A program made the position numbers and the translations under genes. Positions 46,166 through 64,000 of a DNA stretch of 64,000 bases are shown piece after piece (positions within the stretch are counted from its first letter, which is position 1; each line of letters opens with the position of its first letter). A model generated the notes under the pieces. The model did not search any database. It was not told where the DNA came from and worked only from the letters and a program-made list of their open reading frames with translations. Origin of the DNA: Alphaproteobacteria bacterium (GTDB lineage: Bacteria; Pseudomonadota; Alphaproteobacteria; SHVV01); assembly GCA_965261735.1 (NCBI GenBank), contig OZ253470.1, forward strand, positions 1 through 64,000. Direction: 5' to 3'.

Positions 46166-47263
46166 CTATAGATTGAAGACGCGGACGGCGTTCTCGCCGA
46201 CCAGCTTGCGCTGATCCGCGGGCTCGAAATCGGCGAACATTTGTCCGACCCGGCTCTGCGTATCGAGACCAATCGAACGAATGTGGGGGAAGTCCGAACC
46301 CCACAGGACCTGGTCGGTGCCGATATGGCGGATGGCTTGTGCCCCGTAGGCATCATCGATCATGCCGTGCCAGACGCGCGTGCGCATGTAGTCACTGGCC
46401 AGCATGTCGAGCTTGGGTAGCGGTAGCCGCGCGGCCATGGACACCTGCATCTGGTCGAGCCGCCACATGAATGGCGGAATCCAGGAGATTTCGAACTCGC
46501 CGCAGAGCAGCTTGAGGCTGGGGAAGCGATCGAGAATCTTGCCGAAAATGAACTCGTTGGCGAGCACCCCCATGACCTCGTACATCATCTCGACCTGGGT
46601 CTTGGGCGTGGTTGATTGCTCCTCGCGCGTATGAAAGTGAAGTGGATCGGGCACCCGGCCAGTGATGATGTGGAGCTGCACGGGCATGCCGATTTCCTGA
46701 GCCCGCGCCCAGAACGGATCATAGGCCGCGTTCTGATAGGGTGGGCAACCCGGCGGCGAGTACAGGTGAATGTTGACGCACTTGAAGCCCTTTGCGGCGC
46801 AGCGCTCTAGCTCCTTCACCGCCCAGTCCACATCGTCCATGGGGATCATGCCGATGCCGACCAGCCGCTCCGCGTCGTAGCCCGCGAACTCCCCGAGCCA
46901 GTCGTTGAAGACGGCGGCGCAGGCGCGCAGGCAGTCGTAGTCGGGATGGCGCATGATCAGCAGCATGAACGTGGCGTTGAGCAGCTCCGCCGCAACGCCC
47001 GCGCGCTCCTGGAATCGTACCCGCACCTCGGGCACGTACCCGGCCTCCTGCATGCCGATGTCCTGGGCGGACGCATCGCCCTGGCCGTAATGCATGACCT
47101 GGCCGCCGGTATAGAAGTAGCTGCCCTTCTCGCCGCGGTGCTCGTCGATCAGCCGCGGGGTCCGATCCCCAAACTTGTCTCCGATCGCCTTGAGCCAAAG
47201 ATCGGGCGGCTCCATGACATGGGAGTCCGCCGAAATGACGCGGTTGACGGGGGAATCGCTCAT
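46166..47263 (-). CDS. Amidohydrolase_2 family protein, paralogue 1
   Basis: ISADSHVMEP, FNDWL, YDPFWA, QLH, WGSDFPH; 365 aa from ATG 47263. Confidence 0.9.
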   Translation of the reverse strand: MSDSPVNRVISADSHVMEPPDLWLKAIGDKFGDRTPRLIDEHRGEKGSYFYTGGQVMHYGQGDASAQDIGMQEAGYVPEVRVRFQERAGVAAELLNATFMLLIMRHPDYDCLRACAAVFNDWLGEFAGYDAERLVGIGMIPMDDVDWAVKELERCAAKGFKCVNIHLYSPPGCPPYQNAAYDPFWARAQEIGMPVQLHIITGRVPDPLHFHTREEQSTTPKTQVEMMYEVMGVLANEFIFGKILDRFPSLKLLCGEFEISWIPPFMWRLDQMQVSMAARLPLPKLDMLASDYMRTRVWHGMIDDAYGAQAIRHIGTDQVLWGSDFPHIRSIGLDTQSRVGQMFADFEPADQRKLVGENAVRVFNL

Positions 47264-47267
47264 CGCG

Positions 47268-48365
47268 CTAGTGGATGTCGAAGGCGACCGCGGCGTTGCC
47301 GCCGACGAGCTTTTCCTGGTCGGCACGGTCGAACCTGGCGAACATCTGCCCCACCCGGCTCTGCGTATCGAGGCCGATCGAGCGGACGTGCGGGAAGTCC
47401 GACCCCCATAACACCTGATCGACGCCGATGTGCGGAATTGCGTCCGCGCCATAGTTGTCGTCGATCATGCCGTGCCACATGCGCTGGCAGACGTATTCGC
47501 TGGCCAGTCGGTCGAGCTTCGGCAGCGCCAATCGCGAGGCCATGGCCACCTGCATCTGGTCGAGGCGCCACGCGAAGTTCGGAATCCAGGAGATCTCGAA
47601 CTCGCTGCAGATCACCTTGAGCTGGGGAAAGCGGTCGAGGATCGTGCCAAAGACGAAGTCGTTGGCGAGAACTCCCATGATCTCGTAGTCGAGGTTGAGG
47701 AAGATCCCCGGCGCCTCCGACTTCTCTTCCTCGGTGTAGAGGTGGAACGGGTCCGGTACGCGCCCGGTGCCCGTATGGAGCTGTATCGGCATCCCCATTT
47801 CCTGGGCCCGCGCCCAGAAGGGATCATAGGTTGAGTCGCGGTAGGGCGGACAGCCGGCGGGAGCGTAGAGGTTGATGTTGACGCACTTCATCCCGAGCTT
47901 GGCTGCGCGCTCGAGTTCCTTCAGGGCCCATGCGATATCGTCCATCGGCACCATCGCGACGCCATACAAGCGCGTCGAATCACGGGAAATGAATTCGGCG
48001 AGCCAATCGTTGAAGACGGCCGCGCACGCGCGCAGGCAGGCGTGGTCCTGATGGCGCATGATAAGGAGCATGCGGGTGGCGGTCAGCACTTCCGCCTTGA
48101 TGCCCGCGCGCTTCTGAAAGTCGATACGGACCTCGGGGACCCAGCCCGATTCCTGCATCCCGATTTCCTGTGCCGAGGCATCGCTCTGGCCGACCTTGGT
48201 GGTCTGTCCGCCGGTGAAAAAGAACTTTCCCTTGACGCCGAGGTGCTCGTCGATCAACCGCGGGGTCTGATCGCCGAACTTGTCGCCGATCGCCTTTTGC
48301 CAAAGGTCGGGCGGCTCCATAACGTGGGAATCGGCGGAAATCACGCTGTCGAACGCGCTCGTCAT
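47268..48365 (-). CDS. Amidohydrolase_2 family protein, paralogue 2
   Basis: Same motifs; 365 aa from ATG 48365. Confidence 0.9.
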   Translation of the reverse strand: MTSAFDSVISADSHVMEPPDLWQKAIGDKFGDQTPRLIDEHLGVKGKFFFTGGQTTKVGQSDASAQEIGMQESGWVPEVRIDFQKRAGIKAEVLTATRMLLIMRHQDHACLRACAAVFNDWLAEFISRDSTRLYGVAMVPMDDIAWALKELERAAKLGMKCVNINLYAPAGCPPYRDSTYDPFWARAQEMGMPIQLHTGTGRVPDPFHLYTEEEKSEAPGIFLNLDYEIMGVLANDFVFGTILDRFPQLKVICSEFEISWIPNFAWRLDQMQVAMASRLALPKLDRLASEYVCQRMWHGMIDDNYGADAIPHIGVDQVLWGSDFPHVRSIGLDTQSRVGQMFARFDRADQEKLVGGNAAVAFDIH

Positions 48366-48400
48366 CGCTCCTGGCCTCCTTGCCCGCCCGCTCCCGAAGG

Positions 48401-49504
48401 CTACAGGCCGAAGGCGGCAATCGCGTTGCCGCCGATGATCTTTTCCTGGTCGGTGCGATCGAGATCGGCGAACAACTGTCCCACCCGGCTCTGGGCATCG
48501 AGCCCGATCGAGCGAATGTGCGGAAAATCGTTGCCCCAAAGGATGCTGTCGACGCCGATATGGGGAATGGCCTCGGCACCATGGGCATCGTCGATCATGC
48601 CGTGCCACATGCGCGTGCGGACATAGTCGCTCGCGCGCATGTCGAGCTTGGGCAGCGGCAGGCGCACTGCAAAGGACTCCTGCATCTGGTCGAGCCGCCA
48701 CATGAACGTGGGCAGCCACGAGATCTCGAACTCGCTGACAATCATCTTGAGTTTGGGAAAACGGTCGAGGATCTTACCGAAGATGAACTCGTTCGCGAGC
48801 ACGCCCATGATCTCATAGAACACCTGGAGCATGACATAGGGCGTGTTGATCCGCTCCTCGGGGGTGTGAAAGAGCAGCGGGTCAGGCGTTTGCCCGGTCA
48901 CGATGTGGAGCTGGATGGGCATGCCCATTTCTTCGGCGCGCGCCCAAAAGGGATCGTAGGCGGAATCCTGATAGGGCGGCCGTCCGGGGCGCGCGTCGAG
49001 GTGAATGTTGGCGCACTTGTGACCGAGCTTGGCCACACGGTCGAGCTCGTTGATCGCCCAGTCGATGTCATCCATCGGGATCATGGCGATGCCGACCAGC
49101 CGGCTGCGGTCGTAGGAAATGAACTCGGCGAGCCAGTCGTTGAACACGGCGGCGCAGGCCTTGAGGCATTCGGCGTCGGGGTGCTGCATGATCAGCAGCA
49201 TGCGCGTCGCCGTCAGCGCCTCGGCCTCGATCTTGGCCTCTTCTTGGAACTTGACCCGGACCTCCGGCACATAGCCCGCCTCCTGCATGCCGATCACTTG
49301 CGCCGAGACGTCGCTCTCGCCCTCCTTCACCACCTGCTTGCCAAAATAGAAGTGCGATCCCTTCTGGCCCAGGTGTTCGTCGATCAATCGCGGCGTCCGA
49401 TCGCCGAAGGTCTTGCTGATGGTGCCTTGCCACAGACCGGCCGGCTCCATGACGTGAGAGTCGGCCGAAATAACGCGGGCAAATCCGTTCTGCTTCATTG
49501 TCAT
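48401..49504 (-). CDS. Amidohydrolase_2 family protein, paralogue 3
   Basis: Same motifs (WGNDFPH); 367 aa, or 365 aa from the second Met. Confidence 0.9.
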   Translation of the reverse strand: MTMKQNGFARVISADSHVMEPAGLWQGTISKTFGDRTPRLIDEHLGQKGSHFYFGKQVVKEGESDVSAQVIGMQEAGYVPEVRVKFQEEAKIEAEALTATRMLLIMQHPDAECLKACAAVFNDWLAEFISYDRSRLVGIAMIPMDDIDWAINELDRVAKLGHKCANIHLDARPGRPPYQDSAYDPFWARAEEMGMPIQLHIVTGQTPDPLLFHTPEERINTPYVMLQVFYEIMGVLANEFIFGKILDRFPKLKMIVSEFEISWLPTFMWRLDQMQESFAVRLPLPKLDMRASDYVRTRMWHGMIDDAHGAEAIPHIGVDSILWGNDFPHIRSIGLDAQSRVGQLFADLDRTDQEKIIGGNAIAAFGL

Positions 49505-49627
49505 ATTCCTGCGCGCCGTCGAGTCCCGGGCCGGGCACGCCAGTCAGGCACCGGGCGCACGGGCGACCGCCCTATTGCGCCGAGTGCCCGGCGGCAGGGC
49601 ATGCGACGGGTTGTCACGGCGCCCGCC

Positions 49628-50635
49628 TCAGGCGAGATACGGCCGCAGTTCGGGGGCCGCTTTACCGATAACGGTTGGGTCGGGGTTGCGATCACAGAAG
49701 AACTCGACCCGCATGCCATCGGGATCGACGACGAATAGGCTCCGCTTCGTCGCGTCGTCGATCTGCTTTTCTATGGTGATGCCCGCCTGGCCGAGCGCGC
49801 CGGCGGACTGTTCGACCGCGGCTTCGCTCGCGAGCTGGAAGCCAATATGGTGGACACTGGCCTTGGTGCCGTTGTTCGCCGCGAGCAGCGCGAGGTCGTA
49901 ACCGCCCGCCGTACCCTGCAGGCACGCATAGCTTCCGTCCGCCGCCTTGTGCGCCGTCGCGAGCCCAGCGATATCATTGTAGAACGCGCATGAGCGATCG
50001 ACCTCATCGACGACGATCGCGGTGTGAGTGATCCGCAGCGGGTGAAGCGGCGCCTCGTCGACGCCGTAGAGCCGCGGATCGAGGTCGTAGCGCGGGTCGT
50101 TGGCCGGGATGACGTCGCTCGGATCCCAGTGGCCCGTAATCAGCTCCATCTCACCATGAAACCAGCCATGCCAGTCCTTCATGATGTCGGCGTAGAACTC
50201 CATCAGGTTGCCGTCGGGATCGGGCATGTAGATGCTATGCGAGATCTGATGATCGACGATCATGGCGATGCTTTCGTCGGCGGCCTGCGCCCGTTTGATC
50301 GCGGAGACGAGTTCGGCCTCATTCTCCATCTCCCACCCGAGGTGGAAGAGTCCGACACGGGTTCCTTCGGTCTTAGGTAGCAGCACCTCGCCATCGCGAC
50401 CGATCCGATCCTTGCCGCGCGTGATCTCCACCATCCCGATGTCGTGATGGGTATTGCCGTTGCCGAGAAAGCTCGCCAAGAGCCCAGGCTCGGTCGCTTC
50501 GATCGTGAGCCCGAACACCTTGTTGTAGAACTCGGTGGTCTTCTGGATGTCGCCAACCCATAGGTTTGCATGCCCTAGGCGGCGGGGCCTGAACATGGCC
50601 GGCTGAGCCGTACCAACTTGTTCTGCCGTGGTCAT
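49628..50635 (-). CDS. Two-domain VOC protein, putative extradiol ring-cleavage dioxygenase (paralogue A)
   Basis: RRLGH, NTHHD, LFHLGW, DHQISHSIY, DPDGNLME; second domain ITH, VHHIGF, DPDGMRVE. Confidence 0.82.
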   Translation of the reverse strand: MTTAEQVGTAQPAMFRPRRLGHANLWVGDIQKTTEFYNKVFGLTIEATEPGLLASFLGNGNTHHDIGMVEITRGKDRIGRDGEVLLPKTEGTRVGLFHLGWEMENEAELVSAIKRAQAADESIAMIVDHQISHSIYMPDPDGNLMEFYADIMKDWHGWFHGEMELITGHWDPSDVIPANDPRYDLDPRLYGVDEAPLHPLRITHTAIVVDEVDRSCAFYNDIAGLATAHKAADGSYACLQGTAGGYDLALLAANNGTKASVHHIGFQLASEAAVEQSAGALGQAGITIEKQIDDATKRSLFVVDPDGMRVEFFCDRNPDPTVIGKAAPELRPYLA

Positions 50636-50902
50636 CGCCTTTCCTCCGGATAACGAGCCCGACGTGCGGAATTCGCGGCGCCGAATGTTGCGTGGCGGGG
50701 GCGGCCATTAGGACTGCCGCCGCTAGAGCCCGCGCCTCAAATCCCCGCTCTAGATGGCGTCTGCTTACTATAGCTGACCCTCACGCGGGCCGCAATGGAC
50801 CGATCTTTCGAGTTGCCACCCGCTTGCTTGAGGGCCGCGCGATTAGCCGCTATAACCGGCGCATCGGCTTGGGCCGGTGTATCAAGAACAAAGGATGCAG
50901 GG

Positions 50903-51421
50903 ATGGTGGTGACACACAAGGAAGTCGGCCCGAAGCGCTACCGCGAGACCTATGGGCGCTACCTCGAGGACTTCGAGGTCGGCGATGTCTACGAACATCG
51001 CCCGGGGCGGACGATCACCGAGTACGACAATGTCGCCTACACACTGTTGACAATGAACACCCACCCGCTCCACTTCGACAACGCCTACGCCGCCAAGTCG
51101 GAATTCGGCAAACCGCTCGTCAATAGCGCATTGACGCTCTCGCTGGTGACCGGCATGAGCGTGAGCGACGTAAGCCACAAGGCGATCGCCAATCTGGGCT
51201 GGGACAAGGTGCGGCTAACCGCGCCGGTGTTCGTGGGCGACACCGTCTACGCCGAGAGCGAGGTGCTGTCGAAGCGCGAATCCAAGTCGCGCCCGACACA
51301 GGGAATCGTGACGGTTCGCACCATCGGCAAAAAGGACGATGGCACTGTATTCATGGACTTCGAGCGCTCGATGCTGATACCCAAGCGCGGCCACAGTCCC
51401 GAGGACATCGCAGGCTATTGA
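50903..51421 (+). CDS. MaoC-family (hot-dog) enoyl-CoA hydratase
   Basis: GRYLEDFEVGD, RTITEYDN...NTHPLHFD, ANLGWD, PVFVGDT, RESKSRP. Confidence 0.9.
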   Translation: MVVTHKEVGPKRYRETYGRYLEDFEVGDVYEHRPGRTITEYDNVAYTLLTMNTHPLHFDNAYAAKSEFGKPLVNSALTLSLVTGMSVSDVSHKAIANLGWDKVRLTAPVFVGDTVYAESEVLSKRESKSRPTQGIVTVRTIGKKDDGTVFMDFERSMLIPKRGHSPEDIAGY

Positions 51422-51521
51422 GCCTCGCCGGCGCTCACACCGCCACGCTCGCTATCGTTTTTGAACGGCGCAGGCTAGACTCCGGGTTGGACTCGGGGCT
51501 CGCCGACAAGGAGATGAAGAG

Positions 51522-52946
51522 ATGAACAGCGCTGTTGAGGCCTACGAGGGCGAAGCAGAGGTCGGCGGCATCGCCAATCAGCTGGCGGACTTCGCCGCGG
51601 GCCTGTCTTTCGACGACATACCCGAGACCGTGCGCACCCGCGCCAAGCATCTCGTTCTCGATGCGGTCGGCATCGCCCACGCCTCGGGGCCACACGATTT
51701 CGCGCAGGTGACGCTGAAGAGCATCCACGAGCTCGGGGGCGACGGCGACTTTCCGGTGATCGGGACCAAGCTGCGCCTCCCGGTGCGCGACGCGGCGTTC
51801 CTCAACGGTCTCCTCATTCACGGCCTCGACTTCGACGACACGCACACGCCGGGCGTCATCCATACGACGACGAGCACCTTCCCGAGCGCTCTAGCGGCGG
51901 CGGCGCTCGCCGGCGCGAGCGGGCGCGAGATGCTGACGGCCTACATCATCGGCGTCGAGGCCGCATCGCGCCTCGCCACGGTGGTCAAGGGCGCCCTGCA
52001 TCAAATCGGCTTCCATCCGACGGGCGTCATGGGCGCCTTCGGTTGCGCTCTCGTGGCCGGCCGCCTGCTTGGCCTCGATCGTCATCAGCTGGCGATGGCA
52101 CAGGGCATCGTACTCAGCGCCGCGTCCGGCAGCCTGGAGTTCCTCGAGGACGGCGCGTGGACGAAACGTTTTCATCCTGGATGGGCGGCGGTGGCGGGTA
52201 TTACCGCGGCCAAGCTTGCCAGCGACGGCTTCGTCGGCGCGACCCGCCCCTACGAGGGCCGCTTCGGGCTCTACAACGCCTACCTCGACGAAAAGGGCGC
52301 GGCCGGCTGCGATCTCAGCATCGCGACCGCAGGCCTGGGCTCGTCCTGGGAGCTATCCAACGTGGCCATCAAGCCGTTCCCGGCGTGCCATTTCACGCAC
52401 GGGTGTATCGATGCCGCGCTCAAGCTCCATAACGATCACGGAGTCCGGGGCGATGCGATAAAGCACGTGCGCGCGCTGGTGCCCCAGGAGGTGGTGAAGG
52501 CCGTATGCGAGCCGGTGGCCAACAAACGCCGTCCCGCCAACACCTACGACGCCGAGTTCAGCATCCCCTTCCTCGTAGCGGCGGCCCTCACCCGCGGCAA
52601 GTACACGCTCGATGAGCTCGATGATGAATCGCTGAGGGATCCGGCCATCCTCGCCATCGCCGACAAGGTCGACTACGAGATCGATCCCAACTCCGGTTTC
52701 CCCAAATACTATTCGGGCGAGGTCATCGTCGAGACCAACGACGGCCGCGAACTCGGCCAGCGCGAGCACAAGAACCGGGGCTGCTCCGAGAACCCGATCT
52801 CTAACGAGGAGATCGTCGCCAAGTTCGAATCCAACGCGGCCCGCGTGACGTCCGATGCGCGTGTCGCGGCGGTCCGCGAGTTGATCCTGACACTGGATCA
52901 GGGCGCCGAGGCAACGCACATCGGCGACGGCCTGGCGGCGCAGTGA
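51522..52946 (+). CDS. MmgE/PrpD family protein
   Basis: HGLDFDDTH, GFHPTG, KRFHPG, KPFPACHFTH, FSIPF. Confidence 0.92.
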   Translation: MNSAVEAYEGEAEVGGIANQLADFAAGLSFDDIPETVRTRAKHLVLDAVGIAHASGPHDFAQVTLKSIHELGGDGDFPVIGTKLRLPVRDAAFLNGLLIHGLDFDDTHTPGVIHTTTSTFPSALAAAALAGASGREMLTAYIIGVEAASRLATVVKGALHQIGFHPTGVMGAFGCALVAGRLLGLDRHQLAMAQGIVLSAASGSLEFLEDGAWTKRFHPGWAAVAGITAAKLASDGFVGATRPYEGRFGLYNAYLDEKGAAGCDLSIATAGLGSSWELSNVAIKPFPACHFTHGCIDAALKLHNDHGVRGDAIKHVRALVPQEVVKAVCEPVANKRRPANTYDAEFSIPFLVAAALTRGKYTLDELDDESLRDPAILAIADKVDYEIDPNSGFPKYYSGEVIVETNDGRELGQREHKNRGCSENPISNEEIVAKFESNAARVTSDARVAAVRELILTLDQGAEATHIGDGLAAQ

Positions 52947-54158: not shown

Positions 54159-54217
54159 CGAGCGCGCCCGCGCCTGACCTTGTGGCGGGCCGCCGGGGCC
54201 CGTCGGGAGAGCCTTTC

Positions 54218-57324: not shown

Positions 57325-58215
57325 CTACACTTCTCTCTCGACGCGCCCTTCCTCGCCGAACAGGCCGAAGGGCCGGAACATGAGGATCATGACCATTCCG
57401 GAGTAGGCGACGAAGTCGCGGTAGGTCGAGCCACCGAGGCCGACCGCAAGGGACTCCATGATGCCGAGGACAACGCCAATATAGAGGCAGCCCCGCATAT
57501 TGCCGATGCCGGCGACGATGAGAACCACGATGCCTTTGAGCCCGAGGAGCAGGCCCACAAATGGGTAGGTGGAGCCAAAGGCCATCGAGTTCAGGATCCC
57601 GGCGACCCCGGCCAGGCTGGCGCTGATCGCGAAACCCATGACCGTGATGCGGTCGACGTTGATCCCGACACACTTGGCGATGTCGGGGCTCTGGGCGAGC
57701 ACGCGGATCGCCTTGCCTATCGAGCTCCTGCGCAGGAATAGAACCATCCCCAACATGACGCCGACCGACAGCAGGATCAGCACCATCTGGGTGTCGGAAA
57801 TCTCGACATCGCCGACGATCACGTAGTAGGTGGGATCGAACGGGCGCGGAAAGAGTTGGGGCCGGCCCTCCGTGAGGACCGTGACTAGGTTCTCGAGAAA
57901 CAGAGCGCCGCCGAGCGTCGCCACCTTGGTATTCCACCAGTTCCCCCTAAGGGGCCGCACCGTCAGCCGCTCGATTAGGAGGCCCGTGACCATCGCCAGC
58001 GCAATGCCGCCGATAGCCGCGAGCCAGAAATTCTCGAGACCGAGATAGTAGACGAGCAGAACGCCATACGCGCCGATCATCATCGTCGCGCCGTGGGCGA
58101 GGTTGAGCACGTTCATGGTGCCGAAGACGAGATTGAAGCCGATCGCCACGACCGCGTAAATCGCACCGGTGGAGACACCGATGAAAATTTGCTCGGCGAG
58201 GTACCCGATCGGCAT
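57325..58215 (-). CDS. Branched-chain amino acid-type ABC permease (LivH-like)
   Basis: GAIYAVVAIGFNLVFG...NLAHG, GKAIR...GIN. Confidence 0.9.
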   Translation of the reverse strand: MPIGYLAEQIFIGVSTGAIYAVVAIGFNLVFGTMNVLNLAHGATMMIGAYGVLLVYYLGLENFWLAAIGGIALAMVTGLLIERLTVRPLRGNWWNTKVATLGGALFLENLVTVLTEGRPQLFPRPFDPTYYVIVGDVEISDTQMVLILLSVGVMLGMVLFLRRSSIGKAIRVLAQSPDIAKCVGINVDRITVMGFAISASLAGVAGILNSMAFGSTYPFVGLLLGLKGIVVLIVAGIGNMRGCLYIGVVLGIMESLAVGLGGSTYRDFVAYSGMVMILMFRPFGLFGEEGRVEREV

Positions 58216-58230: not shown

Positions 58231-58974
58231 TCAGCTTCCTAGGTAGGCGTCCTTGAGACGCTCGCCTTCGGCGACCTCGGCGCTGGTGCCGCTGAACTCG
58301 ATGCCGCCGATACGCATGACGTAGGCGCGATCGGCTATCTCCAACGCCTTGTTGACGTTCTGCTCGACGACCAGGATATCGACCCCGTCCTCCTGGTTGA
58401 TGCGCCGAAGCATGTCGAAGATCTCCTTGAGCAATATCGGCGCGAGCCCCAGGGACGGCTCATCGAGAAGCATCAATTTGGGACCCGCCATGAGCCCGCG
58501 GGCGATCGCCAGCTGGCGCTGCTCGCCACCTGACAGTGTCGCGGAGAACTGTTTACGACGCTCATGGAGAACCGGGAACTTGTCGAACAGCTCGTCCATC
58601 TTGCGGCGCACGATCGTTCTGTCACGGTACAGGAACAGGCCGCCCACCTCGAGGTTTTCCTCGACCGTCATGCGCGGCAGAACCACCTGCGCGGAGGGTA
58701 CGTTGGCGATGCCGAGCCGCGCCAGGTTGTGGGTCGCCATACCGGTGATGCGGTGCGTCCTTTCGCCGTCGAAATAGTCGACTGTCCCGGTTGAGGGCGG
58801 GACCAGCCCCATGATCGAGAGCAGGACGCTCGTTTTTCCGGCCCCGTTGGGGCCGAGCAGCGCCACAACTTCGCCGCGGTTGACCACCATCGATACGTCG
58901 GTCGCGGCGACGACCGCGCCATAGCGAACCTCCAGGTTCTCGACCTTGAGGACGGGAATTGCGTCGCTGGCCAT
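58231..58974 (-). CDS. ABC ATP-binding protein (LivF-like)
   Basis: GPNGAGKT, LSGGEQ, LDEPSLGLAP, VEQN. Confidence 0.92.
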   Translation of the reverse strand: MASDAIPVLKVENLEVRYGAVVAATDVSMVVNRGEVVALLGPNGAGKTSVLLSIMGLVPPSTGTVDYFDGERTHRITGMATHNLARLGIANVPSAQVVLPRMTVEENLEVGGLFLYRDRTIVRRKMDELFDKFPVLHERRKQFSATLSGGEQRQLAIARGLMAGPKLMLLDEPSLGLAPILLKEIFDMLRRINQEDGVDILVVEQNVNKALEIADRAYVMRIGGIEFSGTSAEVAEGERLKDAYLGS

Positions 58975-58978
58975 GAAT

Positions 58979-59752
58979 CTAGTCGCCGAGATAGGCCTGG
59001 ATCACGGGGGGATCGTCACGCACGTACTCGGGAGTGCCCTCCGAGATCTTGCGGCCGTAGTTAAGGACCGCTACTTGATCCGAGATCTGCATGACCACTG
59101 ACATCTTGTGCTCGATCATCAGGATCGTCTTGTTGCGCCCCTTGATCTCGTTCTCGATGAGGCCCAGCGTTTCGTTGATCCAAACGGGGTTCATGCCCTG
59201 GGTCGGCTCGTCCATCAGCACGATCTCCGGATCAAGGGCGAGGATGCGGATCATTTCGAGCATGCGCCGCTCGCCGAGCGAGCAGGTGCCTGGATAATCG
59301 TGACGGCGCGGATACAGGCGGCCGCCACCTATCTCGCCGAGCAGCTTCTCCGCGCGATCGCGCACCCGCTTGCGTTCCTCGCGCTCACCGCGCATGCACA
59401 ACAAGGCCTCGACAATGCTCGTCCGGCTGCCCGTGAACTGAGGTAGCTCGCAGTTCTGCAGGATCGTCAGATTGGGGAACAGGCGCGCGCTCTGGAAGGT
59501 GCGGCCGACGCCGAGCTCGGCGACGCGGTGCGGCCCCCACCCCATAATGTCGACGCCGTTGAACATGATCGAGCCGCCGTCGGCGGGCAGCAGCCCCGAG
59601 ATAATGTTGAACAGCGTCGTCTTGCCCGACCCATTGGGACCGATCACGCAAAAGGTTTGTCCCTCGGAAATATCGAGGCTTACCCCGTCCAACGCGACCA
59701 AGCCACCAAAGTGCTTGGTGACACCCGCTATGCTGAAAAACGAAGATGCCAT
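58979..59752 (-). CDS. ABC ATP-binding protein (LivG-like)
   Basis: FGGLVAL, GPNGSGKTT, RTFQ, MDEP, IEH, QAYLG. Confidence 0.92.
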   Translation of the reverse strand: MASSFFSIAGVTKHFGGLVALDGVSLDISEGQTFCVIGPNGSGKTTLFNIISGLLPADGGSIMFNGVDIMGWGPHRVAELGVGRTFQSARLFPNLTILQNCELPQFTGSRTSIVEALLCMRGEREERKRVRDRAEKLLGEIGGGRLYPRRHDYPGTCSLGERRMLEMIRILALDPEIVLMDEPTQGMNPVWINETLGLIENEIKGRNKTILMIEHKMSVVMQISDQVAVLNYGRKISEGTPEYVRDDPPVIQAYLGD

Positions 59753-60049
59753 AACGCCCCTTCGAGAAAACCCGCTGGACCGGCGAATCGAGCAAGCGCC
59801 AGCGCGGCGCCAACAAACCCACCGGCGCCAGGGCGCCCCGTGGTCGACGCCGCAAACCGCCGCGTCAAAGGCCGATAAAACGCTGTGCTGCGGCCTCCCT
59901 GAGAAGGGCCATTATTGTTTCGCGCCGCGGTGCAGTTCCCAAAACGGGGCGGGCACCCCGGCGCGAGACGCATTCTGCTTACAAGGGGGGGCCATGGCAA
60001 CAGCGAATTGGCGTTGGCCCGATTTCGCCCGTGACGTTGTGCGTACTCG

Positions 60050-61057
60050 CTAGATGAGATACGGCCTCTGTTTGGGGTCAGCGCCCGCCACCGCACTGAA
60101 ATCGGGCGCTCGAGCCACATAGAACTCGCAGCGCATCGCATCCGGGTCCTTGACGAACAGGCTGCGCTTGACCGGGTTGTCGACGCGCATCTCGATCTCG
60201 ACTCCGGCGTCGGCCAGCGCCTTCTCCGCCGAGTCGAGCTCGCTCTCGTTGGCGACCTCGTAACTGTAGTGGTGGATCGACGGCGCGGCGCCCTCCGCCT
60301 GGCTGAACAGCGCGATACTGAAGGCATAGCCGGCGGCACTGCCGGCGAAGCACTGGAAGGCGCCATCGGGCGCGCTGTAGACGTTGCTCAAGCCGGCGAC
60401 GCCCTCGTAGAAGTCGACCATCGGGCCGAACTTTCCGCACATCAACACGGCATGGGTGAAGCGCAGGGAGTGAACGAGCGCATCGTCCACGCGCCTGATC
60501 TCGGCGCCGGCGTCATAGCGTGACTCAGCGGTGGCGGGCGCCGCATGAGGCTCCCAGCTGCCGGTGACGGGACTGCCTTTCTGGCTATCGAAAAACCCGC
60601 GCCAATCCCTGATCATGTCGGCATAGATCTCGTGCTCGTTGCCGTCGGGATCGAACACATAAACGCTATGTGCGCTCTGGTGGTCGACGCAACGGTAGAT
60701 GGGATAGCCGGCCTCGACCGCCCGGTCGTAGGCCTCGACCAGGCGCTGCTCGTTGTCCATCTCCCACCCGAAATGATTGAGCCCCGCCTTCTTGGCGCGC
60801 CCACTCGAAGGCACGGGCTTGCCATCGCGGCCGACGAGCACCTTGTCACTGACCTGGACCAGGCCGAGATCGTGGTGCGTATTGCCGTTCGAGAGGAACC
60901 CCGCGTTGACGATGTGGATACGGTAGACCTCCTCGAACCCGGCAACCTTGTTGTAGAACTCCATCGAGCGTTCGAGTTCGCCCACGAACAGGTTGGCGTG
61001 ACCGACCCGGCGCGGCGAGAACTTGATGGCCGGCGCCTCTTGCGTCTGAGCTGTCAT
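60050..61057 (-). CDS. Two-domain VOC protein, putative extradiol ring-cleavage dioxygenase (paralogue B)
   Basis: RRVGH, NTHHD, LNHFGW, DHQSAHSVY, DPDGNEHE; 335 aa like paralogue A. Confidence 0.82.
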   Translation of the reverse strand: MTAQTQEAPAIKFSPRRVGHANLFVGELERSMEFYNKVAGFEEVYRIHIVNAGFLSNGNTHHDLGLVQVSDKVLVGRDGKPVPSSGRAKKAGLNHFGWEMDNEQRLVEAYDRAVEAGYPIYRCVDHQSAHSVYVFDPDGNEHEIYADMIRDWRGFFDSQKGSPVTGSWEPHAAPATAESRYDAGAEIRRVDDALVHSLRFTHAVLMCGKFGPMVDFYEGVAGLSNVYSAPDGAFQCFAGSAAGYAFSIALFSQAEGAAPSIHHYSYEVANESELDSAEKALADAGVEIEMRVDNPVKRSLFVKDPDAMRCEFYVARAPDFSAVAGADPKQRPYLI

Positions 61058-61251
61058 GGAACATCCTCCGATGGCGGGTTGTCGGAACCTGCGCCGACCT
61101 TAGCACAGGTCGCCGCGCGTACCTATTCGGAGCGGCGGGTACAGGCGCCACTGCACCGCCGCGGCAGCCAGAATCGGCGCGTGGGCGGAGCGCAGGATGT
61201 GCTAATGTTCGCCGGATCGGCTAGCAGACCGGCGGTGTGATGGAGGGAACC

Positions 61252-62511
61252 ATGGGTTACGAAGGCGGCGTGCAATGGCCGCGCAAAGATTACTCGCGCG
61301 TCCCCTACTCGCTCTACCACGATGCCGACATCTACACCCAGGAGATGGAGTGCATCTTCCGCGGCCCGGTGTGGCTCTTCCTGGGCCTCGAGGCCGAAGT
61401 CCCCAATGCGGGCGACTTCCGCACCACCTGGCTCGGCGAGACCTCCGTCGTCTACAACCGCGACGATGACGGCCAAATCTACGCCTTCGTCAATCGCTGC
61501 GCCCACCGCGGCGCCACCGTGTGCCGCGAGCTTTACGGCAATGCCGCCGATCACACCTGCATCTACCACCGCTGGTGCTACGACCGGCAGGGCAATCTCA
61601 TCGGCATTCCCTTCAAGCGCGGTGTTGGCGGCAAGGGCGGGCTCAGCCCGGACTTCGACCAGAGCGCCCACGGCCTCAGGAAGCTGCGGGTGGAGAGTTA
61701 CTGCGGCGTGCTGTTCGCGACCTTCTCGGACAATCCCGAACCGCTGATCGACTATCTCGGTCCGGCCCATTCCGCTCACCTCGAACGCGTCTTCCACAGC
61801 CCGGTGCGCGTGCTCGGCTACCAGCGCCAGCGCATCCATGGCAACTGGAAGTTCTACAACGAGAACCTGCGCGACCAGTACCACGGGAGCCTGCTGCACG
61901 AGTTCCAGACCACCTTCTCGATCAACCGCATCACCCAGGAGGGCGGCGCCAAGATGGACCCGCGCCACCGCCACAGCATCTCGTGGGCCAAGAAGGGGTC
62001 CGACGATGACGCGGCCGTCCACGAGCTCTACAAGGACAACAAGGTGCGCGAGGGCGAACTCACGCTCAAGGACACGGAGATGCTCGTCTACCATCCGGAG
62101 TACGACGACGGCGTCACCATCTCGATCGCCTCGGTATTCCCCAATGCCTGCTTCCAGCAGATTCACAACAGCGTGGCGACGCGGCAGATTCGGCCCAAGG
62201 GGCTCGACGCCTTCGAGCTCGTCTTCACCATCGTCGGCTTCGAGAGCGATAGCGCGGAGATGACGCGGGCGAGGCTGTTGCAGTCGAACATGGTGGGCCC
62301 CGCCGGGCTGATCTCGATGGAGGATGGCGAGGCGGTGGAGATCGCCCACCGCTCGAGCCGGGCGACACAAGACGCCCACACGGTCGTCGAGATGGGCGGA
62401 GGCGGCAAGATCGAGGACTTCGACTTCCTCGCCGCCGATATCCCGATCCGCGGTTTCTGGTCCTACTACTCCGAGCTCATGGGGTTCGAGCCGGAGGGGG
62501 CAGTGCGATGA
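61252..62511 (+). CDS. Aromatic ring-hydroxylating oxygenase alpha subunit 1 (AndAc/OhbB/NagG-like group)
   Basis: Rieske CAH...CIYH, NWKFYNENLRDQYHGSLLH, SMEDGE; GGAGG RBS before ATG 61252. Confidence 0.92.
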   Translation: MGYEGGVQWPRKDYSRVPYSLYHDADIYTQEMECIFRGPVWLFLGLEAEVPNAGDFRTTWLGETSVVYNRDDDGQIYAFVNRCAHRGATVCRELYGNAADHTCIYHRWCYDRQGNLIGIPFKRGVGGKGGLSPDFDQSAHGLRKLRVESYCGVLFATFSDNPEPLIDYLGPAHSAHLERVFHSPVRVLGYQRQRIHGNWKFYNENLRDQYHGSLLHEFQTTFSINRITQEGGAKMDPRHRHSISWAKKGSDDDAAVHELYKDNKVREGELTLKDTEMLVYHPEYDDGVTISIASVFPNACFQQIHNSVATRQIRPKGLDAFELVFTIVGFESDSAEMTRARLLQSNMVGPAGLISMEDGEAVEIAHRSSRATQDAHTVVEMGGGGKIEDFDFLAADIPIRGFWSYYSELMGFEPEGAVR

Positions 62512-63396
62512 CGACGGCAGAGGTGCGAGACGCCATCAACGGCCTGCTCGCCGACTACGTTCATTACATCGATGCCGACAGGCTCGAGGAGTGGCTCGAC
62601 TTCTTCACCGAGGATTGCGTCTACAAAGTCCTGCCCCGAGAGAACGTCAAGCAGGGCCTGCCGGGCAGTCTCATGGAGTGCCACAACAAGAACATGCTGC
62701 GCGACCGCATCGTCTCCTACCGCGAGGCCAACGAGTACAACATTCACGTCGACCGCCATCTCCTGAGCAACGTGCGCATCGTTGGCGAGAATGCCGGCGT
62801 CTACGACGTCGAGGCGAACTACGCCGTATTCCAGACCAACAACGACGGCGAGAGCCGCCTGTTCAGCGTCGGCAACTACGAGGACAAGGTCGTGTTCGAC
62901 AATGGGTCTGCGCGCTTCAAGGAAAAGATCGTGGTCGTCGACACCTATTCGATCCCGACCCTGCTCGCCACGCCCCTGTGAGCGCCGCCGCGCCGCCGCG
63001 GTAGTCCTTGCGCGACACGCTCGCCGTGACCGGTAGCCACCAGATACCCTGGCCGCGGAAGGATTTTTCCAGAGTACCGTTTGCGCTCTATCACGACGTA
63101 GACATCTACGCGCAGGAGATGGAGCGCATCTTCCGCGGTCCCGTGTGGCTCTTCCTCGGCCTCGATGCCGAGGTCCCCAATGCTGGCGACTTCCGCACCA
63201 CCTGGCTCGGCGAGACGCCCGTCGTCTACAACCGCGACGATGACGGCCAAATCTACGCCTTCGTCAATCGCTGCGCCCACCGCGGCGCCACCGTGTGCCG
63301 CGAGCTTTACGGCAATGCCGCCGATCACACCTGCATCTACCACCGCTGGTGCTACGACCGGCAGGGCAATCTCATCGGCATTCCCTTCAAGCGCGG
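61445..63396 (+). repeat. 178-bp identical direct repeat (61445-61622 and 63219-63396) in the two Rieske domains
   Basis: Compared base by base by eye: identical including third codon positions; offset 1774 bp. Confidence 0.85.
62508..62981 (+). CDS. Aromatic ring-hydroxylating oxygenase beta subunit
   Basis: ATGA overlap with alpha; LEEWLDFF, PREN, MLRDRI, LLATPL. Confidence 0.92.
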   Translation: MTTAEVRDAINGLLADYVHYIDADRLEEWLDFFTEDCVYKVLPRENVKQGLPGSLMECHNKNMLRDRIVSYREANEYNIHVDRHLLSNVRIVGENAGVYDVEANYAVFQTNNDGESRLFSVGNYEDKVVFDNGSARFKEKIVVVDTYSIPTLLATPL

Positions 63397-64000
63397 GGTT
63401 GGCGGCAAGGGCGGGCTCAGCCCGGACTTCGACCAGGGCGCCCACGGCCTCAGGAAGATTCGGGTGGAGAGTTTCTGCGGCGTGCTGTTCGCGACCTTCG
63501 CCCACGACGTCGAGCCGTTGATCGACTATCTCGGCCCAACCCACGCCGATTTCCTGGCGCGCACCTTTCACAGCCCCACGCGCTTGCTCGGCTATCAGCG
63601 CCAGCGTATCCACGGCAACTGGAAGCTCTACAACGAGAACATCCGCGATCAGTACCACGGCAGCCTCCTCCATCGCTTCCAGGCGGCGTTCGGCATCACC
63701 CGTTTCACGCATGCCGGCGGCACCGTGACCGACGCGTGCCACCGCCACAATCTGCTCTACACGATCGCCGGCAGCGACACGGACGCAGAGGCCCACGAGG
63801 TCTACGCGGATGCCGACCAGGAGCCGCTCGACATCGAACTCGCGGCGGCGGAGTTCATGGACTACGTACCGGAGTTCGAGGATGGGCTAGCGCTCGGGCT
63901 GGCGGCGTTCTTTCCCAACGCCCTCTTCCAGCAAATGCGCAACAGCTTGGCCGTGCGCCAGATCCGCCCCAAGGGTCCCGGCGCCTTCGAGCTCATCTTC
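63026..64000 (+). CDS. Aromatic ring-hydroxylating oxygenase alpha subunit 2, 3' end runs off the window
   Basis: Not in the ORF track. Open frame of 325 codons from GTG 63026 (TTG 63008 also in frame): WPRKDFSRVP, CAH...CIYH, NWKLYNENIRDQYHGSLLH. Confidence 0.92.
   Translation, partial: MTGSHQIPWPRKDFSRVPFALYHDVDIYAQEMERIFRGPVWLFLGLDAEVPNAGDFRTTWLGETPVVYNRDDDGQIYAFVNRCAHRGATVCRELYGNAADHTCIYHRWCYDRQGNLIGIPFKRGVGGKGGLSPDFDQGAHGLRKIRVESFCGVLFATFAHDVEPLIDYLGPTHADFLARTFHSPTRLLGYQRQRIHGNWKLYNENIRDQYHGSLLHRFQAAFGITRFTHAGGTVTDACHRHNLLYTIAGSDTDAEAHEVYADADQEPLDIELAAAEFMDYVPEFEDGLALGLAAFFPNALFQQMRNSLAVRQIRPKGPGAFELIF

Follow-up and report, generated by a model that had tools for sequence, protein, structure and literature searches.

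Two putative adjoining catabolic modules, one with ARO-like, extradiol-type and CoA-module genes and one with a Rieske oxygenase array, in an uncultured alphaproteobacterium

The window, 64,000 nucleotides in length, comprises bases 1-64000 of one 5.03 Mb contig from an uncultured alphaproteobacterium. Its last part holds catabolic genes arranged as two divergent operon pairs, a layout correctly described in the initial annotation, and the gene inventory listed there was borne out by Pfam and NCBIfam, each item being found at or near its place. Family calls for the cluster genes were made by Pfam and NCBIfam profile searches, and gene content, family placement, motifs, folds, synteny and recurrence were directly observed. 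The annotated cluster genes had Pfam E-values of 1e-14 to 1e-111, far beyond chance; no cluster protein reached an NCBIfam equivalog cut-off, and for none was a homologue above approximately 35% identity with a known substrate, product or activity found. Below, Module A denotes the genes from 46166 to 61057 (ARO-like genes with a VOC gene, a CoA module, a hydrolase of meta-cleavage-product type, an ABC importer and a second VOC gene) and Module B those from 61237 to approximately 69298, beyond the window end. In this genome the two modules together take up four operons within a 23-kb stretch. Reductase, ferredoxin and regulator genes, noted earlier as absent from the window, were not found at 46-80 kb either (Pfam/NCBIfam); the genome contains two Fer2-fused reductase-sized frames, at 2.51 and 4.73 Mb. 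Most cluster genes are matched at 95-100% identity by metatranscriptome contigs (four runs, two studies), which is compatible with expression of the cluster and is no proof of it.

Module A begins with three tandem genes on the minus strand, encoding the PtmU3/DitZ-like Amidohydro_2 proteins ARO-like 1 (46166..47263; 365 aa; motifs D-S-H and D-F-P-H-I-R; PF04909 at 1e-26), ARO-like 2 (47268..48365; placed by Pfam and alignment; 71% identical to ARO-like 1; motifs D-S-H and D-F-P-H-V-R) and ARO-like 3 (48401..49504; 367 aa; placed by PDB alignment to PtmU3 and DitZ and by its AF2 model). The open reading frame lists over-extend two of the three; N-terminal alignment puts the true starts at approximately 47263 and 48365, giving corrected lengths of about 365-367 aa for all three paralogues, which are 68-71% identical pairwise. 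The initial annotation had named LigW, ACMSD and LigJ as members of the family of these proteins, but a decarboxylase or hydratase type is supported by neither sequence nor fold. The best PDB sequence matches were PtmU3 (1.8e-40 and 6e-40; ARO-like 1 to 6omp at 1.8e-40) and DitZ (ARO-like 1 to 8uyr at 3e-22), whereas PF04909 decarboxylases scored 1e-14 or worse, a gap of over 25 orders of magnitude to PtmU3. Likewise, a Foldseek search with the ARO-like 3 model (pLDDT 91.6) returned PtmU3 (E 3e-22, TM 0.79) and DitZ as the top folds. Furthermore, all three proteins carry the N-terminal D-S-H and C-terminal D-F-P-H, while according to the source paper characterised PF04909 decarboxylases and hydrolases are without D-x-H and D-x-P-H; in the alignment, the D-x-P-H place of gamma-resorcylate decarboxylase reads D-W-P-F.

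Candidate metal ligands of ARO-like 3 are D15, H17, H200, E258, D326 and H329. In an alignment of 34 sequences D15 was at least 90% conserved and the other five were invariant, and H200 and E258 align with a His and a Glu of PtmU3. R331 occupies the D/E place of the published motif D-x-P-H-x-D/E, and Arg stands at this last position in all 120 ARO-like homologues and in 17 of the 22 paralogues of this genome. Judged from sequence and model, the three tandem "amidohydrolases" look like dinuclear oxygenases with an Arg variant of the family motif. Characterised AROs perform aliphatic C-H hydroxylation or oxidative decarboxylation, and no record of aromatic hydroxylation by an ARO was found in the literature consulted on characterised AROs.

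VOC1 (49628..50635, minus strand; Pfam Glyoxalase 5e-27) leads the operon that also encodes the three ARO-like proteins, and its paralogue VOC2 (60050..61057, minus strand; Pfam and alignment; 42% identical) heads the ABC operon, divergent from the first Rieske alpha gene. Both are two-domain proteins of 335 aa, and structure comparison confirmed the extradiol dioxygenase fold already suspected: the AF2 model of VOC1 (pLDDT 96.7) matched LapB with a VIA Z of 26.2 (rmsd 2.7 A over 258 residues), and XylE (25.5), HPCD (24.4), BphC and HsaC with Z of 23-25.5. Across 67 VOC sequences H22, H64, H98 and D150 were 100% conserved and N24, D65, E102, Y136 and E146 were 96-99% conserved; the conserved His/His/Glu and His/Tyr sit in the N-terminal domain, and VOC2, one of the sequences in alignments A2 and A3, carries the N-domain residues that are invariant in them. 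Around VOC homologues elsewhere, a class A FAD monooxygenase gene was present within 600 bp at 40 of 80 loci and an ARO-like gene at 6 of 80, and a Rieske alpha gene adjoined the VOC gene at 4 of 27 further loci examined; this VOC family is therefore habitually found beside a hydroxylase. Homologues beyond the organism's own family were mostly unlinked to a CoA module. Of the 22 ARO-like genes in the source genome, 9 have one of its 20 VOC genes no more than 3.5 kb away, versus a random expectation of approximately 0.7 by arithmetic. They are spread over five loci, and the hydrolase type described below is also present at three of the five. Coordinate comparison revealed at least 1-4 such ARO-like/VOC loci in each of five relatives.

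The CoA module consists of four plus-strand genes. The first (50795..51421) encodes a MaoC-type (R)-enoyl-CoA hydratase, itaconyl/mesaconyl-CoA hydratase-like (NF038241 RipB/Ich at 259.9 bits, below the cut-off of 340; PF19315 mesaconyl-CoA hydratase at 4e-25; beta-methylmalyl-CoA dehydratase in the PDB at 9e-37). It is followed by an MmgE/PrpD family protein of the isomerase/epimerase-like branch (51522..52946; Pfam 3e-67 and 1e-38), for which the best PDB match, IDS epimerase 2hp3 (2e-45), outranks cis-aconitate decarboxylases, and by the adjoining acyl-CoA dehydrogenase (52965..54158; Pfam, with all NCBIfam matches below cut-offs). The fourth is a family III (CaiB/BaiF) CoA-transferase of dicarboxylate type (54182..55405; PF02515 at 2e-111; PDB formyl-CoA transferase and SUGCT at approximately 1e-60), matched below cut-off by the NCBIfam models for succinate-glutarate and succinyl-CoA:mesaconate transferases. 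The cluster was found to contain neither a lyase gene nor 2-hydroxypentadienoate-pathway genes; the genome has three HpcH genes, at 3.06 and 4.02 Mb. An Advenella genome contains all four proteins in one operon (MaoC 58%, PrpD 53%, acyl-CoA dehydrogenase 72% and CoA-transferase 59% identical) with an HpcH/CitE lyase gene of citramalyl-CoA-lyase type nearby. Against a Cupriavidus necator genome, the CoA-module proteins reached at most about 33% identity to any protein, so that orthology to characterised enzymes is not established.

Downstream lies an alpha/beta hydrolase gene of the meta-cleavage-product (C-C) hydrolase type (55444..56277, plus strand; Pfam), with a G-x-S-x-G motif (G-S-S-Y-G at 97-101) and His257. 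Its best PDB matches, CumD (4e-22), DxnB2, HsaD and BphD, are all C-C hydrolases of meta-cleavage pathways; it also matched NCBIfam 3-oxoadipate enol-lactonase models at 88 bits, below cut-off. On the minus strand, a Liv-type ABC set spans 56323-59752, with two permeases, LivM-type (56323..57318; PF02653 at 9e-29) and LivH-type (57325..58215; PF02653 at 1e-43), and two ATPases, LivF-type (58231..58974) and LivG-type (58979..59752), both identified by Pfam and NCBIfam. No substrate-binding protein gene for this importer was found in the cluster, and the open reading frame 59728-60366 had no Pfam or NCBIfam family match.

Module B, on the plus strand, opens with Rieske alpha1 of the TphA2/AndAc/NagG group (61237..62511; PDB TphA2 7q04 at 3e-116 and NagG 7c8z at 2e-98; AndAc model at 464 bits, below the cut-off of 750), the sole beta gene for four alphas (62508..62981; AndAd model at 171.7 bits, below the cut-off of 230) and alpha2 (63008..64000 in the window, which cuts the gene before its true end at 64273; Pfam). 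Beyond the window follow alpha3 (64360-65622), an IS630-type element of 1155 bp (65619-66773), alpha4 (66787-68052) and a triple-RidA gene (68090-69298). Paralogue multiplication, already proposed from the window, therefore exceeds what is visible there, with four diverged alphas, one beta and a RidA deaminase. The alphas are 69-79% identical, diverge most at residues of approximately 225-300, and all four retain intact Rieske and mononuclear-iron motifs; genome-wide there are 7 beta versus 14 close alpha genes. The likely substrates of Module B are substituted benzoates, perhaps amino-substituted ones, and its electron carriers would be encoded at other genome sites.

Comparison with related genomes separated the two modules. 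The gene order of the Module A core is shared with related genomes from three further genera, four with the source: housekeeping flank, ARO-like (1-2 copies) and VOC1, divergent from MaoC, PrpD, acyl-CoA dehydrogenase, CoA-transferase, hydrolase(s), Liv ABC, (hydrolase), VOC2 and (ARO-like). The full order was found in relatives G002, G004 and G005 and part of it in G001 and G006, the CoA module of G001 being split by 17 kb of inserted DNA. These genomes are kin, and the synteny may reflect descent, not selection. The orthologous Rieske array lies away from Module A, on another contig or at another place, in all five relatives; its alpha(1-4) plus beta arrangement is kept in all five, with RidA next to it in four. 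The proposed co-occurrence of the genes in other genomes thus holds for the Module A core and not for the Rieske part, and the position of Module B beside Module A is peculiar to this genome. The Rieske genes are accordingly not the upper step of a conserved unit, as had been supposed.

The best explanation, held tentatively at slightly less than an even chance as a whole, is that the region represents two adjoining catabolic modules rather than a single system, with Module A as a conserved unit for an aromatic route and Module B as a separate Rieske unit, within the bounds given above. We infer each catalytic step, the sequence of the steps and what class of substrate enters. The ARO-like oxygenases would hydroxylate an imported compound, carboxylated and aromatic or alicyclic-aromatic, a VOC enzyme would perform extradiol cleavage of the resulting diol ring, and the alpha/beta hydrolase would split the ring-fission product to yield a substituted succinate-type dicarboxylate. 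This may then be epimerised, CoA-activated, dehydrogenated and hydrated, as in methylsuccinate/itaconate degradation, with the final lyase presumably encoded at another genome site. Points against this reading are the Arg at the last motif position, the absence of electron-carrier genes nearby and of lyase and importer binding-protein genes in the cluster, the NCBIfam cut-offs missed throughout and the CoA-linked substrates of PtmU3. The earlier view of an oxygenase-rich cluster that as a whole matches no described pathway was upheld.

An unlikely alternative is a branched-dicarboxylate pathway with no aromatic ring. Here the ARO-like proteins would hydroxylate aliphatic C-H bonds of succinate-type acids that bear alkyl or methyl groups, or of the CoA esters of such acids; the VOC proteins would be lactonases or isomerases acting on the oxidised products, and the hydrolase would open lactones or thioesters. 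Aliphatic hydroxylation is a known activity of characterised AROs, the enol-lactonase matches of the hydrolase agree with lactone opening, and the Ich/MmgE/Mcd/Ict-like module is the divergent and syntenic neighbour of the ARO-like/VOC operon. PtmU3 takes CoA-linked substrates, so that an ARO-like role inside the CoA branch would fit instead. The published itaconate cluster holds a VOC-family gene with lactonase function, PA0880, acting on 2-hydroxyparaconate. PA0880 is, however, a small protein of 127 aa, unlike the VOC proteins here with their second domain, Z of 26 to extradiol dioxygenases and near-invariant His/His/Glu and His/Tyr. The C-C hydrolase matches, and the aromatic-type FAD hydroxylases beside half of the VOC homologues elsewhere, some of which adjoin Rieske alphas, also favour the aromatic route.

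Slightly less probable still is that the Arg-variant proteins are one-metal, non-redox enzymes, e.g. hydratases or C-C hydrolases of ring-fission products acting after VOC, with hydroxylation supplied elsewhere. Arg replaces the motif D/E throughout the clade, electron-transfer genes are absent nearby and the ARO-like genes lie downstream of the VOC gene in their operon. However, the 38 PDB matches with E of 0.001 or less do not include LigY, a C-C hydrolase of ring-fission products, Module A already holds a separate C-C hydrolase, and all six first-sphere positions, including the second-metal His, are invariant or nearly so. High-potential (diiron) AROs are also generally without a neighbouring Rieske ferredoxin. 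AibH1, the mononuclear non-catalytic partner of AibH2, is reported to lack the corresponding motif Asp, so the Arg clade may bind one metal and may not be an oxygenase.

It is very unlikely that the region forms one funnel, as initially annotated, in which multiplied Rieske and LigW/ACMSD/LigJ-type upper steps on ortho-substituted benzoates lead to meta-cleavage and a single lower CoA route. The proximity of all parts in this genome, the TphA2/AndAc/NagG grouping of the alphas and the inclusion of such decarboxylases, here weaker PDB matches, in PF04909 agree with it, but the separate Rieske array in every relative and the motifs and E-values of the ARO-like proteins oppose it. What survives of the funnel, though not in its original form, is that hydroxylase, dioxygenase and hydrolase sets are multiplied genome-wide, with a single dicarboxylate CoA route beside one. 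An accidental mosaic of unrelated operons with no common pathway, joined by rearrangement in an IS-rich genome, is just as improbable: the element between alpha3 and alpha4 is present in 39 full-length genomic copies of at least 99.3% identity, the Rieske module has evidently moved and the G001 CoA module is interrupted, but Module A order is conserved over four genera and the combination of ARO-like, VOC and hydrolase genes is repeated at several independent places in each genome.

The VOC proteins share the fold of two-domain extradiol dioxygenases, yet their conserved catalytic residues are N-terminal. In the ARO-like proteins Ser fills the x of D-x-H, a feature shared with the diiron enzyme PtmU3, and the six ligand positions match the set of 3 His and 3 carboxylates reported for AibH2 and SfbO. 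The CoA module, whose four genes had been recognised from the outset, is now refined to the family composition of a published pathway: its four families are those of Ich, MmgE, Mcd and Ict in the itaconate/methylsuccinate cluster PA0878-0882, as described in PMC12290011 and PMC9875883, and it has no counterpart to the lyase of that cluster. In those accounts the acyl-CoA dehydrogenase is a methylsuccinyl-CoA dehydrogenase and the MmgE protein a methylsuccinate isomerase. According to PMC12290011, the isomerase gene always adjoins the dehydrogenase gene in published clusters, and the MmgE and acyl-CoA dehydrogenase genes are adjacent here as well.

The region is composed of a meta-cleavage-style cluster with putative steps, in which an unrecognised amidohydrolase-related clade occurs together with VOC proteins of an unusual subfamily and a CoA module of the itaconate type, and of a separately conserved multi-alpha Rieske module placed beside it. 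The window opens a single contig of 5.03 Mb and covers its first 64 kb. Every gene listed between positions 46166 and 64000 in the initial annotation was recovered by Pfam and NCBIfam scans; the underlying observation was confirmed and extended, and the interpretation placed upon it, i.e. a funnel system for substituted aromatics, was supported in part. The cluster (Module A, 46166-61057) contains three Amidohydro_2 genes (PF04909) with a VOC gene (VOC1), a divergent set encoding MaoC, MmgE/PrpD, an acyl-CoA dehydrogenase (ACAD), a family III CoA-transferase, and an alpha/beta hydrolase, and a second VOC gene (VOC2) on the opposite strand at the head of four Liv-type ABC genes. No ABC binding-protein gene was detected in the cluster by the Pfam and NCBIfam scans. 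Two of the amidohydrolase ORFs were too long in the mechanical ORF list, and based upon the N-terminus common to the three proteins all were set at approximately 365 aa. Divergent from the second VOC/Liv set are a Rieske alpha gene, a beta gene, and a second alpha gene truncated by the end of the window, which belong to the Rieske module (Module B, 61237 to approximately 69298).

Downstream of the window, Module B continues with alpha3, an IS630-type element, alpha4, and a gene encoding a 402 aa protein with three RidA (L-PSP) domains (L001:8090-9298, L001 being a locus on the same contig). The IS630-type element (1155 bp with terminal inverted repeats) is located between alpha3 and alpha4 at 65619-66773 of the contig (G000; L001:5619-6773), and at its left end it overlaps the stop codon of alpha3. 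In the genome there are 39 full-length copies of this element with at least 99.3% identity (55 blastn pieces), a sign of a recent IS burst. Additional oxygenase genes adjoin the cluster outside of the window: besides a PNPOx-like gene, the stretch L001:9295-11941 encodes a luciferase-like oxidoreductase of the F420 type, which exceeds the TIGR03619 cut-off with 279 bits, and a flavin monooxygenase resembling HsaA, which stays under its cut-off with 332 bits. To the left of Module A, between the housekeeping flank and the first amidohydrolase gene, two genes occupy window positions 43160-45918, one for an amidase that matches the PRK06169 model at 639 bits and the other for a D-amino-acid dehydrogenase at 526 bits. 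Both scores exceed their cut-offs and both genes are syntenic in relatives; the housekeeping genes lie further left. Electron-transfer genes (reductase or ferredoxin) linked to either module were not found in the 46-80 kb scanned.

Homologues of the three amidohydrolase genes, hereafter ARO-like (ARO, amidohydrolase-related dinuclear oxygenase), were searched for in 61 genomes and were present in all seven other genomes of the host's family (8-32 matches each) and in three of the 53 genomes from other families of the class, with one match each. According to tblastn, the gene order of Module A is kept in three related genomes (G002, G004, and G005) and partly in two others (G001 and G006), all of which are kin of the host. 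The conserved order consists of the housekeeping flank, one or two ARO-like genes, VOC1, and the divergent MaoC, PrpD, ACAD, and CoA-transferase genes, followed by one or two hydrolases, the Liv genes, a hydrolase, VOC2, and frequently a further ARO-like gene. Rieske genes were not found within the 60-kb Module A stretches of these relatives. The closest Rieske relatives (62-69% identity) form a separate unit on other contigs in all five, comprising one to four alphas and a beta, with a single RidA gene after the beta in four of the five. The region is therefore best described as two modules whose side-by-side placement is peculiar to this genome; of the single system initially proposed, Module A holds together among kin while the Rieske genes stand apart. 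Across 80 loci surrounding VOC homologues, the full Module A was found only in the host's kin, with a partial case in locus L035. Loci L027-L033 match the G001-G006 stretches in gene order and identities and may represent the same genomes, and so were excluded as extra support. At one locus of G001 (L018-L020; G001:C15, 71-131 kb), approximately 17 kb splits the CoA module from MaoC, and VOC1 is separated from the ARO-like genes by an IS4/5-type transposase; this locus tends to rearrange.

Most of the genes are covered at 95-100% identity by metatranscriptome contigs (four runs, two studies), a finding compatible with expression, contigs alone being no proof of transcription; gaps in the RNA contigs (e.g. 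55144-55777 and 57680-58313 in most runs) carry no meaning. Near-identical DNA was present in 15 runs from seven studies, showing that the organism is widespread across those sequencing data sets. In one RNA run labelled as a sponge metagenome the share of matching sequence words is 0.06, which provides no evidence of habitat.

The label "amidohydrolase" is probably wrong for the ARO-like genes. Their nearest solved relatives by sequence were PtmU3 (E ~2e-40; approximately 27-35% identity) and DitZ, with PF04909 decarboxylases matching at 1e-14 or worse, and an AlphaFold model (pLDDT 91.6) returned PtmU3 (TM 0.79) and DitZ as its top fold matches. These enzymes are among the recently named AROs (PMC13154177, PMC10811679, PMC7782822). 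The AROs are defined by a C-terminal D-x-P-H-x-D/E motif and an N-terminal D-x-H motif, which lies on the first strand and supplies two metal 1 ligands, and characterised PF04909 decarboxylases and hydrolases are described in that account as lacking both motifs (PMC13154177). The first-sphere ligands reported for the ARO-type protein AibH2 are D25, H27, H211, E265, D337, and H340, i.e. three histidines and three carboxylates. All three window genes encode D-S-H, which aligns with D-S-H of PtmU3 and D-D-H of DitZ, and across 34 aligned sequences D15 was at least 90% conserved and H17 invariant. The strand-5 histidine (H200) and strand-6 glutamate (E258) likewise have aligned counterparts, a His and a Glu, in PtmU3 and DitZ. 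The candidate ligands D15, H17, H200, E258, D326, and H329 are conserved and, from the alignments, would occupy the two-metal ligand positions of AibH2 and SfbO. Motifs of the PF04909 decarboxylase or hydratase type were not found in the window proteins, which carry D-S-H and D-F-P-H (gamma-resorcylate decarboxylase 3s4t has D-W-P-F aligned to the latter). Together with the ranking of the solved relatives, this speaks against the LigW, ACMSD, and LigJ types considered in the initial annotation.

The C-terminal motif reads D-F-P-H-[IV]-R, in which Asp, Pro, and His are kept and Arg replaces the final Asp or Glu, leaving the full ARO motif incomplete. Arg occupies this position in all three window genes, in 17 of 22 genomic paralogues, and in all of the 120 best homologues drawn from a search of 5.8 billion proteins (503 at E <=1e-20). 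In most AROs the corresponding Asp merely hydrogen-bonds water on metal 2 (PMC13154177), and the equivalent Asp is reported as absent from AibH1, which is mononuclear and non-catalytic; two-metal binding may thus fail in the Arg variant. The proteins are termed ARO-like and are not filed as ARO members, their oxygenase activity being putative. Since Arg is conserved throughout the clade, the published motif-based census of approximately 17,000 ARO sequences (PMC13154177), which relied upon D-x-P-H-x-D/E, would miss the clade and its 503 homologues. Should the Arg-clade proteins prove to be oxygenases, the described limits of the superfamily and of its chemistry are too narrow; should they bind one metal, they mark a point at which oxygenase function was lost or gained.

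The VOC protein reached E 3e-6 at best against the PDB by phmmer and missed all NCBIfam equivalog cut-offs. With 117 representative clusters at E <=1e-30 among 1.84 billion, this is a small family, and its matches in the ESM Atlas were generic "dioxygenase/VOC family" clusters. The structural model (pLDDT 96.7) superposed on two-domain extradiol dioxygenases with Z of 23-26 and has the two-domain VOC fold of the type I extradiol dioxygenases. The VIA values were Z 26.2 with an rmsd of 2.7 A over 258 residues for LapB, and Z 25.5, 24.4, 23.7, and 23.4 for XylE, HPCD, BphC, and HsaC, respectively. Among 67 aligned members, the candidate site H22, H98, and E146, together with H64, Y136, and N24, was 96-100% conserved and is located entirely in the N-terminal domain, while the corresponding C-terminal positions were 60-78% conserved or less. 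These residues presumably have the roles of their counterparts in the HPCD numbering. In classical type I extradiol dioxygenases the C-terminal domain is the active one, and judging from its conserved residues this family seems to have switched the active domain, N-terminal instead of C-terminal.

The pairing of ARO-like and VOC genes recurs within the genome. A total of 22 ARO-like genes and 20 VOC genes of this subfamily were detected by tblastn, in addition to 45 Rieske-alpha-like genes, 22 hydrolases of this type, 12 CoA-transferases, and nine MmgE/PrpD genes. Of the ARO-like genes, nine have a VOC gene no more than 3.5 kb away, where random placement predicts approximately 0.7, and these nine are distributed over five loci at 46-51 kb, 2.335 Mb (decayed), 4.034 Mb, 4.957 Mb, and 4.964 Mb. 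The hydrolase type is present at three of the five and Liv-type genes at two. The stretches 4034190-4039868 and 4956840-4966872 both contain hydrolase, ARO-like, VOC, and Liv-type genes, and one of them holds the sole paralogue with a canonical D-Y-P-H-W-D. ARO-like and VOC genes are also neighbours in all five relatives, with a VOC, ARO-like, VOC arrangement in G004 and G006.

The 80 VOC loci were obtained from a collection of 185,579 species using a search from a nine-row VOC alignment. Of the 80, 40 have within 600 bp a class A FAD monooxygenase resembling HpxO or 3-hydroxybenzoate hydroxylase, and an ARO-like gene was found within 600 bp at six, within 1.6 kb at two more, and within 8.5 kb at a further four. 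Neighbours were called in 27 of the remaining 33 loci and included a Rieske alpha (four), an amino-acid permease (six), an aldo-keto reductase (five), and RidA (two). The VOC family habitually adjoins a hydroxylase, which can be any of three unrelated kinds, and this habit is the main reason for reading the ARO-like proteins as hydroxylases that feed a ring-cleaving dioxygenase. In six Acidobacteriota loci (L042, L044, L047, L051, L054, and L055) the VOC homologue comes immediately after a gene for an amino-acid permease, with an ARO-like gene within 8.5 kb in four of the six, and in L052, also from Acidobacteriota, the ARO-like gene is 12 bp from the VOC gene. In the Rhodococcus aib cluster, too, an ARO is reported to be paired with an amino-acid permease. 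Literature joining amidohydrolase-related dinuclear enzymes with extradiol, meta-cleavage, or ring-cleavage chemistry was not found among the matches listed. Methylsuccinate and meta-cleavage do occur together in one source, in which methylsuccinate appears merely as a growth test (PMC7118221).

Among solved structures, the alpha/beta hydrolase was nearest to CumD (4e-22), DxnB2 (8e-20), and HsaD (6e-19), as well as BphD, and the protein contains the serine nucleophile motif G-S-S-Y-G at residues 97-101 and, towards the C-terminus, His257. The HsaD and BphD equivalog cut-offs were missed, so the hydrolase is placed in the meta-cleavage-product class and not as a named enzyme. In the CoA module, all curated cut-offs were missed, with MaoC scoring 260 bits on the RipB/Ich model (cut-off 340); the MmgE protein is nearest to IDS epimerase and the transferase to dicarboxylate CoA-transferases. 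The published itaconate/methylsuccinate cluster combines Ich, Ict, and Ccl and, when extended, has Mcd beside MmgE. In that cluster, the ACAD is a methylsuccinyl-CoA dehydrogenase, MmgE/PrpD a methylsuccinate isomerase, and the family III transferase Ict (PMC12290011, PMC9875883), and the isomerase gene is stated always to adjoin the dehydrogenase gene (PMC12290011), as the ACAD and MmgE genes adjoin in the window. No HpcH/CitE lyase gene was found in the cluster, and three HpcH-family genes are located megabases away in the genome. An Advenella operon (L121:5279-13497) encoding MaoC, a TctC receptor, MmgE, ACAD, a CoA-transferase, a GntR regulator, an MFS transporter, and an HpcH/CitE lyase is 53-72% identical to the CoA module of the window, and is likely a branched-dicarboxylate cluster of a type distinct from that of C. 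necator. In a C. necator genome nothing exceeded approximately 33% identity to the CoA-module proteins; one locus with PrpD (33%), ACAD (34%), and a CoA-transferase (32%) could not be identified as the published cluster.

A route through Module A can be proposed from these parts, in which the ABC system would import a carboxylated aromatic compound, the ARO-like enzymes would hydroxylate it, the VOC protein would open the ring in extradiol fashion, and the alpha/beta hydrolase would cut a C-C bond of the ring-fission product. The three diverged ARO-like copies suggest related substrates or successive positions. MhpC frees succinate from the phenylpropionate ring-fission product, which serves as the model for a succinate-type acid entering the CoA module; on this analogy, a side chain consisting of a branched carboxyalkyl group would be freed as methylsuccinate or a larger substituted succinate. 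MmgE, the transferase, the dehydrogenase, and the hydratase would process the released acid, and a lyase encoded elsewhere would complete the route. A purely aliphatic, dicarboxylate-centred pathway is a serious rival, since the characterised AROs are reported to act on aliphatic carbons and PtmU3 on a CoA ester. Little weight is given to the ARO-like proteins as LigY-like C-C hydrolases, as LigY was absent among 38 PDB matches. The proteins of the CoA module are at best candidate orthologs of the characterised C. necator enzymes (best PrpD-like match 33%). The 335-aa VOC proteins as homologues of PA0880, reported as a 127-aa lactonase of the itaconate cluster and so at odds with a two-domain dioxygenase fold, were rejected.

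The initial annotation related the Rieske genes of Module B to the AndAc/OhbB/NagG group. Alpha1 matched TphA2 (3e-116) and NagG (2e-98) in the PDB, and all four alphas retain the Rieske C-x-H...C-x2-H and the mononuclear iron His-x4-His motifs, which, with the beta gene present, places them in the TphA2/AndAc/NagG group. The best NCBIfam models were AndAc and AndAd, at scores below the equivalog cut-offs (464 versus 750 and 172 versus 230, respectively). The four alphas diverge mostly at residues ~225-300 of the catalytic domain and have one beta in common. The genome encodes 28 Rieske alphas of this type, 14 of them close, versus seven betas, and the relatives have 17-38 alpha matches each. 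Module B would oxidise substituted benzoates, and the RidA gene hints at amino-substituted substrates.

The repeated VOC and C-C hydrolase pairing with ARO-like genes represents a concrete, testable three-enzyme unit. The broadest reading, which we regard as rather unlikely, is that Arg-variant dinuclear oxygenases are the ring-hydroxylating partner of N-terminal-site extradiol dioxygenases and form with a C-C hydrolase a new meta-cleavage unit, multiplied in one uncultured alphaproteobacterial family and here feeding methylsuccinate-type acids into an itaconate-like CoA route. If true, it would supply methylsuccinate with an environmental source and would assign a role to thousands of genes that carry an amidohydrolase annotation. 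Methylsuccinate is described as likely to be environmentally important (PMC12290011), and the link to a methylsuccinate-type module suggests a possible origin for it.

Among known systems, Module B resembles TphA2A3, AndAcAd, and NagGH in the alpha1 match, the best models, and the intact iron motifs, and differs in having four alphas per beta, a RidA gene downstream, and no linked reductase or ferredoxin gene. The CoA module shares four families (Ich, Mcd, MmgE/PrpD, and Ict) with PA0878-PA0883 of P. aeruginosa and the C. necator cluster, as well as the adjoining MmgE and dehydrogenase genes and an associated VOC-family gene. It departs from the itaconate/methylsuccinate cluster in gene order, in lacking a gene for citramalyl-CoA lyase, in its linkage to oxygenase, hydrolase, and ABC genes, and in the accompanying VOC protein, which has 335 aa and a predicted extradiol dioxygenase fold versus a 127-aa lactonase.

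The ARO-like proteins resemble AROs in their PF04909 TIM-barrel fold, in having PtmU3 and DitZ as best matches in both sequence and fold, and in their D-x-H and D-x-P-H motifs, and share with PtmU3 in particular the Ser as middle residue of D-S-H. The high-potential class of AROs is described as having no adjacent Rieske ferredoxin (PMC13154177), and the ARO-like genes similarly have none next door. In contrast to AROs, the entire clade carries Arg for Asp or Glu, identity to PtmU3 is low, and the genes occur in tandem, at 8-32 copies per genome in one bacterial family, with VOC dioxygenases as partners. The VOC proteins resemble XylE, LapB, HPCD, BphC, and HsaC in the two-domain fold and in a His/His/Glu set with nearby His and Tyr, and their genes, like those of type I extradiol dioxygenases, have hydroxylase and C-C hydrolase partners; the proteins differ from these enzymes in very low sequence similarity and in conserved residues located in the N-terminal domain. 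The mhp genes encode a trio of hydroxylase, extradiol dioxygenase, and hydrolase, and HcdABC of Pseudomonas mandelii is reported to act in the same order. Genes for the 2-hydroxypentadienoate branch are absent from the window cluster, unlike in these systems; furthermore, the hydroxylase would be ARO-like and not a flavoprotein, and the dioxygenase belongs to another subfamily, while the proposed three-step logic is identical to that of the HcdABC and mhp trios.
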